IMG/VR virus record: IMGVR_UViG_3300042901_002277
Source of the DNA: a virus
Direction: 5' to 3' (one strand)
Length of the DNA: 64,000 bases
The notes beneath the pieces are model-generated. The model was not told the origin of the DNA. It did not search any database and saw nothing but the letters and a program-made list of their open reading frames with translations. This document shows, in pieces, positions 2 through 11,180 of the stretch. Made by a program: the position numbers and the translations under genes. Numbering within the stretch: the first letter of the stretch is position 1; every line of letters starts with the position of its first letter.

Positions 2-568
2 ATACATTGGCACTTAGAGCACATAGAAAACGATGTTCCACAGGTTGCTGCTGCTTGGAATATGTTGAAGAATAATGTCTCAAGCCCAAATAATGGCTCT
101 ACTGGTTTTGTTAGTTGTTCCTCCGAGAATCTCTCCACACCAGATGAATATATTGACTTCTTGAATCGGGTGGAAATAAAATGCACCGAAAATACCGGGT
201 GGGAGATGGGATGGGATTCCTCGGATAGAAGGGCCGTGATTACTCACGAGGTGACAGGAAAGAAAATAATTCGCATCTGCCCGCTTGGACACGTTCAGAC
301 GGTTGTGTCATTTGACAGTACAGAACCAACCCGTGAGCATCAAGAAATGATGAACAAAATTAATTGGTGGTTTCTTGAAAAAATATGGAAAGATAAGTCA
401 ATTCAGTTTTGGTGGGAATGGTCTGTTGGTGACCTTGTAATTCCAGATTTAACACAAATGGCTCATGCTGTAAAAACAGGTTTTAAACATAATCAACGAA
501 ATTTTGTTGGGTACTGGGCCTTCGGTGATGGATATGAAAAAAGAATAAAAAATCCACTAAATACCTAA
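2..568 (+). CDS. TauD/TfdA-like 2OG-Fe(II) dioxygenase (5' truncated by window edge)
   Basis: Frame is open from base 2 (IHWHLEHIENDVPQVAAAWN then M62); C-terminal WSVGDLVIPDLTQMAHAV; paralog of 9620..10450. Confidence 0.75.
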   Translation: MHWHLEHIENDVPQVAAAWNMLKNNVSSPNNGSTGFVSCSSENLSTPDEYIDFLNRVEIKCTENTGWEMGWDSSDRRAVITHEVTGKKIIRICPLGHVQTVVSFDSTEPTREHQEMMNKINWWFLEKIWKDKSIQFWWEWSVGDLVIPDLTQMAHAVKTGFKHNQRNFVGYWAFGDGYEKRIKNPLNT

Positions 569-1339
569 CAGTGTTCCAACTGGTACGTACCCGAAATCAA
601 GACCTTCAACTTTTTCAACATCTTTTTTTAAATTAACAAGCCATTTAAAATCTGCATCTTCTTTTCTCATTGAGTCGTAATCAAAGTGCTCTAATCCATG
701 ACAAAACCATGACAGATACGAATACCTGACTCCAGAGGTAACTGGAAGTATCTCGTGTGCACCAATGTACGATGAAGGGTATACTGTCACCGAACCAACT
801 TTACCCTTGTGCGTAATCCCCCATGTTTTAAACTTTAACTCCCCGCCATCGTAGTTATCGTTTAGTGCAACCGTCGTCGTGAGTGTGTTGTATAGCGGGA
901 AAATGTGAAGCGGGTTATAGGTATCCCCATCATATGGAAGCCCACAATCAGAATGTGAACCTATGTACTGCCCGGGTTCATACCTTGCAATATGCCCATT
1001 TGTTCTCCATGTTAATTCAGAAATAGAAACAGGAAAAACTCTTGCGTACAGGACAACGGCAGAGTATATGGCATCGTCAATTAATTTTCTTATTAAATCA
1101 TCCTCTTCTGTCTTGCCATCGTATTGAAAGTTATCAAAGCGTGTAGGTCTGGTATCAACTGAATTTTTTGAAAATTCGTACCCACCCTGATTTAGCTCTA
1201 CTGAATCGTCCACCTCAATGTAGGCCTGCGGACTAGAACCTGCCTCAATTCTTTCCAACCACGCAAGACTCCTCTTGTTATCCAAATCCAGCAATCCGTC
1301 AATAGCTAAAATTCCATTTCCAAGATGACGAACATTCAC
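557..1339 (-). CDS. 2OG-Fe(II) oxygenase, prolyl-4-hydroxylase-like
   Basis: HSD...YDGGEL...GAHEILPVTSGVRYS: HxD..H triad plus 2OG-binding R. Confidence 0.85.
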   Translation of the reverse strand: MNVRHLGNGILAIDGLLDLDNKRSLAWLERIEAGSSPQAYIEVDDSVELNQGGYEFSKNSVDTRPTRFDNFQYDGKTEEDDLIRKLIDDAIYSAVVLYARVFPVSISELTWRTNGHIARYEPGQYIGSHSDCGLPYDGDTYNPLHIFPLYNTLTTTVALNDNYDGGELKFKTWGITHKGKVGSVTVYPSSYIGAHEILPVTSGVRYSYLSWFCHGLEHFDYDSMRKEDADFKWLVNLKKDVEKVEGLDFGYVPVGTLLGI

Positions 1340-2202
1340 GAATGCATGCTTTCGACCAAAGACAGGGCAAGGGCCGGTGCCTTTGCACCAAGTGTTTCCA
1401 AATAATTTTTAAAATCTTTTCGTAAATTCGGCATATAAACGTTTGTTGAAAGATTGGCAATTTGAGGATTTTCTATAGGGTCTATTATTACTTCGTTTAG
1501 TTCAACATTTGGGCTACCGTGGGAGTACCAACCAAGATAGGTGTACCTATTCCCGCTGGTAACCGGTTTCACTTCATGAGCAGCAATGTAATTTGAAGGA
1601 AACATCATTATGTCTCCGGTTTTTGGTTTATATTCGATGTCCAAGTAGTTAAAATAATGCTCTCCACCACTGAAATCTTCGTTTAAATATACGATACAAG
1701 AAATTGTATTCCTTGTAGCAATCTGGTCGGATGGTTCAGGCATGCCATACGTGTAATCGGCACTAGTATCGGAGTGTTGTCCAAGAAAAGTTCCACCATG
1801 TTCTACCGAGTATGAAACAATATGGCCTTTTACCTTCCACCAGACATTCTTGTAGGCAAGTGGAAAAAGAACGAAATACTTTAATAGATATAAATCTTTC
1901 GATTTTTCAATGAAGTGTAGGAAAGTTTTAATTTCTTCATCCTCTACTCCATGTATTCTAGATGCACGTCTTGGCATCTCGTTGACCCCATCTGCGTCAA
2001 AATAGTATCCGCTCCTGTTCAGGAATAAAATTGCCCCTGTCTCCGGGTCAATTGCCTCTGTGTACATTTCTGAACGTTCACGACTAACTTGTTTTTCAGC
2101 AAATGAACAAGCCCATTCAGAATCAAATGTTATTGCATTCTCGAATAAGACCACACCACCACCAAGATGTTTTGCATCGACATCATTGAACAAATAGTTC
2201 AT
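1336..2202 (-). CDS. 2OG-Fe(II) oxygenase, prolyl-4-hydroxylase-like
   Basis: HSD...YLNEDFSGGE...AAHEVKPVTSGNRY. Confidence 0.85.
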   Translation of the reverse strand: MNYLFNDVDAKHLGGGVVLFENAITFDSEWACSFAEKQVSRERSEMYTEAIDPETGAILFLNRSGYYFDADGVNEMPRRASRIHGVEDEEIKTFLHFIEKSKDLYLLKYFVLFPLAYKNVWWKVKGHIVSYSVEHGGTFLGQHSDTSADYTYGMPEPSDQIATRNTISCIVYLNEDFSGGEHYFNYLDIEYKPKTGDIMMFPSNYIAAHEVKPVTSGNRYTYLGWYSHGSPNVELNEVIIDPIENPQIANLSTNVYMPNLRKDFKNYLETLGAKAPALALSLVESMHS

Positions 2203-9623: not shown

Positions 9624-10450
9624 TGAGGTACTTTACCAAATATCCCAATAAATTCACGTTCGTGTGGCTCAAACCCACCAAGTACAGCATGACACATTCT
9701 AAACAGGTCTATTATCAAGAGGTCCCCTGGGGACCATGCCCAACCCTTAATGTAGCCACTGCCCGGGAGAAGAAGATTTTCAAATTTCTTTTGAATTTGT
9801 ATATATCTAGATATTTCGGTGATGCTTGGCTTTCTTCCATCAAACGACACTAATTTCTCAACGATATATGCTGGGTCAATCCTTATCAGCTCTGAATTGT
9901 TTGTTTTATTTATTCTTATCGGGGAACGATAGTTTTTATCTTCTTCATTTTTGTGATTAGTAATCACTAAACATTTTTTTAAAAAATCAATTTCCTCTTC
10001 ATTGAATGCATGCATTGTCTCCTGCCCATCACAGAACAACGTTATTCCATTTGATTTATCGCAATCAAACTTAGTCATATTCCAACATGATGCTGCTGTT
10101 TCAATGTTGTTCTCAATGTGCTCGTAGTGCCAGCTCACGAGAATATTATGTCTTGAAACCTTGCCAGACTCTCTACTTATTGAGAGATTGTGGTTTTCTC
10201 TATATCCACCAAGGTTCGGAACGATGTCAAAATTTTTACAGAATAATTTAAATATTTCTTTTTGTTCTTCTTCGCTTACACTCGCTTCTTTAAAACCAAT
10301 AAAACCTTCTATCTTGAATTTTTCAAAGTAAAAGTTTTTATTTAGTTTTATAGAATCTGCATTTTGTCCCGTAGTCGCGTCGAACAATGCAATGTCGCCC
10401 AACTCGTAATGAGGCTGCTCCAAGTAAGAGATGTTACCCATTATTACCAC
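9620..10450 (-). CDS. TauD/TfdA-like dioxygenase
   Basis: WHYEH...GITLFCD...WSPGDLLIIDLFRMCHAV...R. Confidence 0.75.
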   Translation of the reverse strand: MVIMGNISYLEQPHYELGDIALFDATTGQNADSIKLNKNFYFEKFKIEGFIGFKEASVSEEEQKEIFKLFCKNFDIVPNLGGYRENHNLSISRESGKVSRHNILVSWHYEHIENNIETAASCWNMTKFDCDKSNGITLFCDGQETMHAFNEEEIDFLKKCLVITNHKNEEDKNYRSPIRINKTNNSELIRIDPAYIVEKLVSFDGRKPSITEISRYIQIQKKFENLLLPGSGYIKGWAWSPGDLLIIDLFRMCHAVLGGFEPHEREFIGIFGKVPQ

Positions 10451-11180
10451 TAATTACGTAAAACATGGATTTATGCTTCCCGAGTCTACTGCTAGGTTTA
10501 TTTTTCTCTATTGCTTCAATTTCATTTTTTTCCATTGCCCTGTAATGACCGAACAACACATCCCTGCCTTTGGCCCATTCATCAGCAGGGCTTCCCCTAT
10601 GCATTAGGTTCCCATGCCAAATCAAAACATCTCCTTTGTGTGGAATAAAAACAAATGGCTCAATTCCTTTTGTCTTAATTAATTCATTATTGTACTCGCA
10701 GCACTGTTGTGGATTGCTTTTGCAATTTTCCCAGTTTATAATTTCTGAATTTTTTAGCCACTTATGAGACTTTGGTATCAACTGAAATGGACCGCAACCT
10801 TCATCAACGTCGCTCATGGCTATGTGCACACCGATGTAACCATTTGCACCAATTGCATTTTTTTCTAAATAGTCGGTGTGCCAGTCTGTTCCTGATGTAC
10901 CTATTCTTGCCTCTGATATGTGTAGGGCAAAATATTTGTTTAAATGTGAGACTACCGAACTTACTTCATCCCCGCAAAGCATCTCTAGTATTTCTTGACT
11001 TCTGAGGTATTCGTTGCGCTCAATGTATGTTTCGTATGATGTTTTTTCTTTTCCAAGAACTACATGTTTTGGTTTATATTTACCCATGAATGCATCTATT
11101 TTATTTTCAGGAATCAACCCATTAATTACGGCGAATCCATTTTCCCAATATTGACTGATTGAATATTGGTCAGCATTCAC
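10434..11180 (-). CDS. PhyH-like 2OG-Fe(II) dioxygenase
   Basis: YWENGF, WHTD, GPFQLIPKSH, KGDVLIWHGNLMHRGS. Confidence 0.85.
   Translation of the reverse strand: MNADQYSISQYWENGFAVINGLIPENKIDAFMGKYKPKHVVLGKEKTSYETYIERNEYLRSQEILEMLCGDEVSSVVSHLNKYFALHISEARIGTSGTDWHTDYLEKNAIGANGYIGVHIAMSDVDEGCGPFQLIPKSHKWLKNSEIINWENCKSNPQQCCEYNNELIKTKGIEPFVFIPHKGDVLIWHGNLMHRGSPADEWAKGRDVLFGHYRAMEKNEIEAIEKNKPSSRLGKHKSMFYVISGNNG

Follow-up and report, generated by a model that had tools for sequence, protein, structure and literature searches.

Which molecules do the multiple 2-oxoglutarate (2OG)/Fe(II) oxygenases of aquatic phages modify? Among the accessory genes of these phages that lack an explanation, multi-copy oxygenases of this kind are some of the most common, and earlier proposals (2-oxoglutarate/nitrogen signalling, DNA repair) name no substrate. 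We addressed the question with a 64,000-nucleotide stretch of the IMG/VR virus record IMGVR_UViG_3300042901_002277 (the window), in which an island of tailoring genes occupies positions 2-11180 and the neighbouring gene, g17, offers a concrete candidate substrate. An original prediction, made from the letters of the window alone, had described 17 genes in this interval, ten of them with 2OG/Fe(II) triads, together with a diiron protein carrying two DEARH motifs, a clear S-adenosylmethionine (SAM) methyltransferase and a DUF6065-like protein; the open reading frame (ORF) listing, Pfam searches and a reading of the motifs bore these assignments out. It had also proposed a ribosomally made substrate, and our analysis supports this, the most likely candidate being a protein of the phage's own fibre locus.

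We propose, with a probability of roughly 0.5, that the phage encodes enzymes that hydroxylate, and perhaps glycosylate, its own proline-rich appendage protein. According to this model, the island is a bank of protein-tailoring enzymes whose core would consist of g14 and g13, probably with the paralogues g01, g02, g05 and the off-window m03, together with the DUF6065 protein g12. The core would act on the C-terminal (Pro-Pro-Tyr/Phe-Phe)n tail of g17, where the oxygenases would hydroxylate the prolines and possibly the aromatic residues, while DUF6065 would assist as a partner that docks to or recognizes the repeat without catalysing a reaction. Accessory enzymes that vary among lineages (a Gnt1-type GlcNAc-transferase, methyltransferases, a radical SAM (rSAM)-SPASM enzyme, the diiron protein and the TauD- and PhyH-like oxygenases) may add further decorations, such as a sugar on hydroxyproline, or may instead act on other targets.

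A proline-rich repeat gene and its downstream oxygenases

The g17 gene lies directly upstream of the first oxygenase gene, 14 nt apart, and its C-terminal sequence, PPYFPPYFPPYFPPRFK, is the only PPxF repeat in the whole genome. Pfam assigns fn3 to the protein, PHROG matches it to tail-fibre and minor-tail families, and its guanine-plus-cytosine (GC) content of 47.5% is like that of the structural genes; we suppose that it is carried on the virion. A (PP[FY]F)n tail with a terminal FK (PPxFK in most) is retained by all listed homologues of g17, and the repeat number n is 3 in g17 and reaches 35 among the ORFs selected by pattern below. This retention of the tail at varying repeat number points to selection on the peptide. 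Elsewhere in the genome no collagen-like or other Pro-rich substrate was found, save a short, Pro-poor G-X-Y run (GSTGAQGPTGATGAEGATGATGATGAAGLG) in a 1048-aa fibre protein (window 18277-21423), which is unlikely to be a P4H target.

To examine the association between the repeat and the enzymes, we scanned IMG/VR with a DNA pattern coding for PPFFPPFFPP[FY]F, without reference to the enzymes. The scan returned at least 120 loci, and the counts that follow are among the matches listed. A homologue of the island oxygenases was present in 85 of the 120 loci and, in loci of at least 8 kb, for 57 of 71 repeat ORFs. A 2OG match accompanied 88 repeat ORFs, and for 84 of these the nearest oxygenase was g13- or g14-like; the median distance was 438 bp, and in 69 of the 88 both were on the same strand. 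As a control for polarity, the two sides of the repeat ORF were compared, counting only flanks with at least 3 kb of DNA. An oxygenase lay within 3 kb downstream in 59/72 cases and within 3 kb upstream in 1/44; for DUF6065 the corresponding figures were 49/72 and 0/44. The link holds both with a match to a g18-like fibre (40/47) and without one (19/25). The reverse check gave a similar picture: of the loci selected through DUF6065 for which 4 kb or more of upstream DNA is present, nearly all carry a PPxF ORF 2-8 kb upstream on the same strand, the exceptions being L059 and L067.

In the selected loci (L108-L227) the (PPxF)n stretch occurs in several architectures: proteins of ~110-190 aa ending in FK, fn3 proteins, ~350-aa proteins with the repeat before a Cys-rich C-terminal domain, and an internal linker within fibres of 900-1500 aa. 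Often a gene for a Cys-rich DUF6171 protein separates the repeat gene from the oxygenase that comes first.

We also searched prokaryote assemblies (596 Gb), where the pattern occurred 23 times. The long-repeat cases were phage-like contigs with the same enzymes, while the 14 ORFs that have just 3-5 repeats and lack the FK ending, apparently chance matches, all stand without an oxygenase neighbour. The phage-like PPxF contigs fall in metagenome-assembled genome bins of five different phyla or orders, a spread that looks like binning noise.

Core oxygenases and the DUF6065 protein

The ten 2OG/Fe(II) oxygenases of the window comprise six 2OG-FeII_Oxy_3 proteins, one Oxy_5, two TauD-like and one PhyH-like protein, and an eleventh, m03, lies beyond the window start. 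Seven (g01, g02, g05, g06, g13, g15 and g16) score above the Pfam gathering cut-off; g14, m03, the truncated g00 and g07 fall just below it (27 bits; individual scores in Table 1). All 11 have the HxD/E...H triad (HxH...H in the Oxy_5 member) and a basic residue. Conservation among orthologues was checked for nine of the eleven: triad and basic residue are 100% conserved in the alignments of g01, g05, g06, g07, g15, g16 and m03, and the triads of g13 and g14 are invariant in their alignments (A2 and A3, respectively), while for g02 and g00 the triad is taken from one sequence each. Identity is 28-32% among g01, g02 and g05 and does not exceed 39% between any paralogues within this genome, so that these are old lineages rather than recent duplicates; recent tandem duplication is ruled out by this low identity together with the separate, conserved orthologue sets.

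Profiles built from the g13 and g14 alignments were then searched against PDB sequences. The g14 profile matched P3H1 (4e-9), the Bacillus anthracis P4H (3e-7) and PiuC; the g13 profile matched the B. anthracis P4H (5e-8), LH3, P3H1 and the PBCV-1 enzyme vCPH (5c5t). The latter was found with both profiles, at E values of 0.003 (g13) and 0.015 (g14), and PiuC/PKHD proteins were also among the matches with solved structures. Judged from these profiles and from a single-sequence search, the solved proteins most closely related to the core oxygenases are enzymes that hydroxylate prolyl and lysyl residues of proteins, and neither AlkB nor TET gave a significant match. Modification or repair of nucleic acid, by oxidation of DNA or RNA from phage or host in the manner of AlkB, TET or JBP enzymes, is the least probable of the explanations that we considered, and we regard it as very improbable. 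DNA repair has been suggested for phage 2OG oxygenases (PMC3037559), and some of the matching PHROG families are labelled 'DNA endonuclease'. However, no island protein, in the window or in the off-window arm, gave an AlkB-type (2OG-FeII_Oxy_2) or TET_JBP Pfam match at E <= 0.01, the PDB profile searches reached TET-like chains only at E 0.4-0.6 and did not list AlkB, and the island sits amid fibre genes, not replication genes. The grouping with AlkB or TET/JBP enzymes that would have spoken against the original prediction is thus absent from the core oxygenases.

A nearly constant companion of these oxygenases is the DUF6065 protein. From an alignment of 37 sequences we obtained a model with a pLDDT of 87.5, in which residues 1-166 are predicted to form a beta-barrel of the dUTPase/dCTP-deaminase type plus an N-terminal helical motif. 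Eleven dUTPases and one herpesvirus tegument protein derived from a dUTPase make up the twelve representative chains that matched the model at Z >= 8, the highest Z being 10.7; the top 50 Foldseek matches were all dUTPases. However, none of the five conserved dUTPase catalytic motifs was found in the protein, which rules out a dUTPase enzyme. The invariant residues (R23, W25, M26, T29, H33, A34, Y35, C37, P39, N44 and G47) lie in the N-terminal helices.

A profile search with DUF6065 returned 2,043 clusters, and ten long forms from metagenomic proteins were scanned for fused domains. Two carry 2OG-FeII_Oxy_3 (P0226 and P0256) and four a Cupin_8/JmjC hydroxylase (P0220, P0260, P0263 and P0270); of the other fusions, one is with an Stf0 sulfotransferase and one with TPR repeats (P0196 and P0248 complete the list). 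The contig of P0226 (L230) looks cellular, and the fusion gene there has Fur, aminotransferase and cobalamin genes around it. These fusions are evidence, at the level of domain architecture, that ties DUF6065 to 2OG-type hydroxylases independently of phage synteny. Because DUF6065 is paired with several different catalytic domains, the role of a docking or recognition partner appears to fit better than that of a fixed second enzymatic step.

A more specific version of the model can be sketched, which we offer tentatively and consider doubtful as a whole. Many uncultured aquatic phages might display on a fibre-locus protein a polyproline-II-like (Pro-Pro-Phe/Tyr-Phe)n whisker, chemically hardened or made sticky by a bank of position-specific hydroxylases that act at multiple sites, and glycosylated or methylated in some lineages. 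DUF6065 might then be a hitherto unrecognized repeat-recognition (docking) domain built on a dUTPase fold, recruiting different modifying enzymes in phages and in bacteria.

A modular island at the end of the fibre genes

We mapped all island proteins onto IMG/VR relatives collected through DUF6065 (61 loci) or through the diiron protein (40 loci). The g14-g13-DUF6065 set is nearly constant, with g13 almost always directly upstream of DUF6065 and g14, in most cases, leading the enzymes that follow the PPxF gene. The g11-g10-g09-g08 genes travel as one block. The diiron gene (g04) and the methyltransferase gene (g03) also remain adjacent to each other, and on one 174-kb contig (3300032308_002246) 60 kb or more separate the pair from the DUF6065 module. 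TauD-like, PhyH-like, rSAM and GlcNAc-transferase genes each occur in a minority of related loci: the PhyH-like g16 was listed in ~9/99 and 3/120, and the GlcNAc-transferase is found in less than 10%. Related loci of at least 15 kb have a median of 8 oxygenase genes (range 1-13). Since the modules move independently among relatives, the island is a set of shuffled modules and not one fixed 17-gene pathway; the single multi-step pathway suggested originally does not hold.

The accessory enzymes raise the possibility that the island modifies a small molecule. TauD-, PhyH-, AurF/R2lox- and O-methyltransferase-type enzymes usually do so, and a host-derived lipid, amino acid, sulfonate or secondary metabolite could be the substrate. 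The TauD- and PhyH-like Pfam matches are consistent with this, as are the best matches of g03, which are weak and are small-molecule enzymes. In g04 the two DEARH motifs and the invariant E135 and E215 fit two E...ExxH ligand sets, and the model is helical and ferritin-like, its nearest folds being the lipid-binding R2lox (R2-like ligand-binding oxidase), aldehyde-deformylating oxygenase (ADO) and the azoxy synthase VlmB. An AurF-type arylamine N-oxygenase (PF11583) was considered for g04 and rejected, the score being 27.0 bits against a cut-off of 29.6 and the model lying nearest to R2lox, ADO and VlmB. The Pfam searches of the island, however, revealed no gene for scaffold building, for a carrier protein or transporter, or for a nucleotide-sugar pathway, and the TauD, PhyH, diiron and methyltransferase genes are rare, lineage-specific members of a system whose conserved core is P4H-like. 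We therefore consider small-molecule tailoring improbable as an account of the island, while small-molecule roles for these four modules are plausible. The absence of a scaffold-building enzyme, claimed by the original prediction, holds inside the window; the rSAM-SPASM and glycosyltransferase genes lie just off its start. Of the two methyltransferases that it named, g03 is canonical, but the 248-aa 'degenerate methyltransferase' g08 (6162-6908) is weakly supported (NCBIfam E 0.0017; atlas lead 0.91). Neither g08 nor any other protein of its block gave a Pfam match; the three small proteins, also without matches, are conserved in relatives.

Several points weigh against hydroxylation of the g17 tail by the core. 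The PiuC/PKHD relatives are not known to have a protein substrate. The PPxF proteins form two large homology clusters, with 94 and 36 members, and the loci are phylogenetically related, so that the linkage counts do not represent separate events in evolution. For the greater part of the island (TauD, PhyH, diiron, methyltransferases, rSAM), linkage to the repeat protein is inconsistent. The relatives of the island enzymes in cultured phages are cyanomyovirus 2OG oxygenases; g13 belongs to phrog_61, common to these enzymes (425 GenBank phage records, 22-37% identity). In the one cultured cyanophage cluster that we inspected, that of Synechococcus phage S-SCSM2R (L228, PQ898602.1 217037-241576), no Pro-rich repeat was found near the 2OG oxygenases. 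That cluster also holds five glycosyltransferases, an rSAM 'maturase', an amidinotransferase and a sulfotransferase. Finally, the PBCV-1 P4H hydroxylates Pro-rich peptides in vitro, but hydroxyproline was not detected in virions (PMC7019647).

Base composition gives a further point of this kind. GC is 32-43% in all 22 genes of the enzyme arms, as opposed to 45-48% in g17, the fibres and the left-hand structural genes, and the shift sharply marks the borders of the island. Such a pattern is also compatible with a hot spot in which accessory genes gather where the fibre operon is farthest from its promoter, beside the repeat-protein gene. Their products would target host proteins (translation factors, for instance) or metabolites, or would draw down 2-oxoglutarate and so alter nitrogen-status signalling, as proposed for cyanomyoviruses. 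The shuffling of content among relatives and the shared phrog_61 family agree with such a hot spot, as do the repeat-free cyanophage cluster and the 2OG/NtcA or DNA-repair roles proposed for the cyanomyovirus enzymes (PMC3037559). Nevertheless, it leaves unexplained why the oxygenases lie downstream of the repeat ORF and hardly ever upstream, and why the nearest enzyme is so regularly g13- or g14-like amid a shuffling remainder. An uncoupled 2OG sink, moreover, would need neither at least six ancient, individually conserved paralogue lineages nor a conserved DUF6065 partner. We regard a host-directed hot spot as rather unlikely, and continue to favour modification of the g17 tail.

Within 2-11180 the 17 genes stand back to back, with overlaps or gaps of at most 42 nt at their junctions; 16 are on the minus strand (557-11180) and one is on the plus strand (2-568). 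The series is thus contiguous, as originally described, but its first gene belongs to a convergent transcription unit and the island extends beyond the window start. The source record, from an uncultured phage, has 160,449 bases with a 127-bp direct terminal repeat, and the assembly is therefore circular. Window 113-64000 is the reverse complement of contig 160449-96562, and window 1-112 runs on across the terminal repeat (G000:C1:1-127) with one mismatch at the junction (window base 112 is T, the contig base G). Through the circular assembly we reached the DNA to the left of the window start (L008), into which the island continues for ~3.3 kb (L008 519-3581, minus strand), giving a total size of ~14.5 kb. 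This off-window arm encodes the rSAM-SPASM enzyme, m03, a PF11397 GlcNAc-transferase, a Cys-rich DUF6171 protein and a 70-aa ORF. The PF11397 gene, whose family is that of the Skp1 hydroxyproline GlcNAc-transferase (Gnt1, GT60), adjoins the P4H-like gene in the convergent arm, which hints at glycosylation. Further left follow unknown proteins, fn3 proteins and baseplate J, so the island is wedged between two converging structural transcription units.

The transcription unit of the fibre genes has the island at its distal end, in agreement with the original prediction. The cassette promoter of the phage (TTGGAAATTTGGTAT...) occurs in 13 copies at 53-63.5 kb; the promoter-like box TTGGAAAT(T/C)TG(G/A)TAT-N-TAnnnT has 13 minus-strand copies in window 53307-63493, with 2.45 expected by chance. 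The loose pattern has one further, unrelated match, at 28469, and no others in the window, and no copy of the cassette promoter was found in 1-24000, which includes the oxygenase island. Sigma-70-like promoters and terminators were not above chance in 1-16500. Because the island is without the cassette promoter and other promoters and terminators are at chance level, read-through from the fibre genes is the simplest reading of these scans, and the enzymes would then be made late, together with the fibres.

Table 1. Features of the island and of the rest of the window. Positions are those of the window unless L008 is given.
Feature	Position	Strand	Evidence and remarks
g17, fibre-locus protein, candidate substrate	11195-11821	minus	208 aa; fn3 domain(s); tail (PPYF)3PPRFK
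g16, PhyH-like 2OG oxygenase, accessory	10434-11180	minus	PF05721, 52 bits; H101-D103...H194, R206
g15, TauD-like 2OG oxygenase, accessory	9620-10450	minus	PF02668, 34.5 bits; H108-E110...H254, R265
g14, P4H-like 2OG oxygenase, putative core	8988-9623	minus	2OG-FeII_Oxy_3, 26.0 bits; H128-D130...H188, R198
g13, P4H-like 2OG oxygenase, putative core	8344-8991	minus	2OG-FeII_Oxy_3, 48 bits; phrog_61; H128-D130...H181, K191
g12, DUF6065 protein, putative core partner	7600-8307	minus	PF19541, 145.6 bits, E 2e-42
g11-g10-g09-g08 module	6162-7619	minus	three small acidic proteins (81, 65 and 108 aa) and a 248-aa methyltransferase-like protein
g07, weak 2OG-FeII_Oxy_3	5498-6181	minus	22.5 bits; H107-D109...H192
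g06, 2OG-FeII_Oxy_5	4906-5520	minus	H106-x-H108...H167
g05, P4H-like 2OG-FeII_Oxy_3	4055-4909	minus	above cut-off; H129-D131...H203, R213
g04, ferritin-like diiron oxidase/oxygenase	2903-4012	minus	two DEARH motifs, residues 164 and 244
g03, class-I SAM methyltransferase	2199-2897	minus	Pfam methyltransferase; motif I DIGCGTG
g02, P4H/PKHD-like, N-terminal extension	1336-2202	minus	2OG-FeII_Oxy_3 above cut-off; H143-D145...H209
g01, P4H/PKHD-like, N-terminal extension	557-1339	minus	2OG-FeII_Oxy_3 above cut-off; H129-D131...H195
g00, TauD-like, C-terminal 188 aa of ~284-aa protein	2-568	plus	23.2 bits; last gene of convergent arm
m03, P4H-like 2OG oxygenase, off-window	in L008 519-3581	L008 minus	24.7 bits
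PF11397 (Gnt1-family) GlcNAc-transferase, off-window	L008 2102-3100		106.9 bits, cut-off 21
rSAM-SPASM enzyme, off-window arm	L008		CNAKCWFC at 29-36 (CxxxCxxC); PF04055, 38 bits; PF13186, 35 bits
Sugar-related set	24249-29348		glycosyltransferase, HAD + NTP-transferase-like protein, methyltransferase
Probable endolysin	33995-34768		VanY D-Ala-D-Ala carboxypeptidase and PG_binding_1 domains
Nol-type carbamoyltransferase	37806-39233		in second low-GC block
DXD glycosyltransferase	39249-40070		in second low-GC block

Elsewhere in the window, a second accessory block of low GC (37-39%) occupies 36000-40500 (Table 1). No DNA-level relatives were found among GenBank phages, tblastn of DUF6065 against them gave no match, and the only baseplate match was a weak one, to a Gordonia phage. 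With no DNA-level relatives and only this weak match, the phage is not T4-like.

Comparison with known systems

A literature search found no relevant published work on DUF6065, on PPFF/PPYF repeats or on hydroxylation of phage fibres. If the proposed modification of g17 is correct, it would be, as far as this search showed, the first enzymatic hydroxylation system for a structural protein of a bacteriophage. It would also give a function to a DUF of some 2,000 clusters and make available a group of compact peptide hydroxylases that may be position-specific.

The closest viral parallel is the chlorovirus PBCV-1, in which a virus-encoded P4H-type oxygenase (vCPH, 5c5t) is likewise accompanied by virus-encoded Pro-rich tandem repeats as its presumed substrate. 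However, PBCV-1 infects a eukaryote, has a single enzyme and a PAPK-type repeat, whereas the present system belongs to a bacteriophage with eleven oxygenases, a PP[YF]F repeat, a conserved DUF6065 partner and strict gene adjacency. The B. anthracis P4H, collagen P3H1 and LH3, the best solved relatives by sequence (E 5e-8 to 4e-9), share the chemistry of the HxD...H triad and basic residue, but identity is low and confined to the catalytic half, and the candidate substrate here is without the Gly-X-Y repeat of collagen. In the Skp1 P4H1-Gnt1 system and in plant and algal hydroxyproline-rich glycoproteins (extensins), hydroxylation of proline is followed by addition of a sugar to hydroxyproline, on a repeat of the polyproline-II type; the PF11397 gene beside a P4H-like gene in the off-window arm recalls this arrangement. 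In contrast to these systems, arabinosyltransferases and peroxidases are lacking here, the setting is cytoplasmic and bacterial, and the transferase is limited to the small minority of related loci given above.

T4-like cyanomyoviruses carry several 2OG oxygenases and PhyH-like genes to which no substrate has been assigned (Sullivan et al. 2010, PMC3037559). They resemble the present phage in the broad enzyme family (phrog_61) and in the multi-copy, variable nature of these accessory genes, but are listed with at most 5 copies per genome (PMC3037559); the present phage has 11 and its relatives a median of 8. Should the tentative picture of a modified polyproline-II-like whisker apply, it would provide a substrate for at least part of the cyanophage oxygenase expansions noted in 2010.

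Finally, the organization of the locus is like that of clusters for peptides that are made on ribosomes and modified after translation (RiPPs), in that the gene for the substrate would come first, followed by co-oriented modifying enzymes, and an rSAM-SPASM enzyme is present; DUF6065, as a putative non-catalytic partner domain fused to different enzyme classes, similarly recalls RiPP recognition elements. A RiPP-like pathway had been offered as an option by the original prediction, but we found no short leader-core precursor, and Pfam gave no protease or transporter family match in the island. We also considered whether g09-g11, m06 or the DUF6171 protein, which is Cys-rich, might provide the rSAM enzyme with a precursor, and found no support for it (DUF6171 occurs in 30 and rSAM in 1 of the 120 listed PPxF loci). 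In place of a leader-core peptide and an exporter, the present locus has a folded 208-aa fn3 protein as its candidate substrate, and the product, unlike a RiPP, probably stays part of a structural protein.

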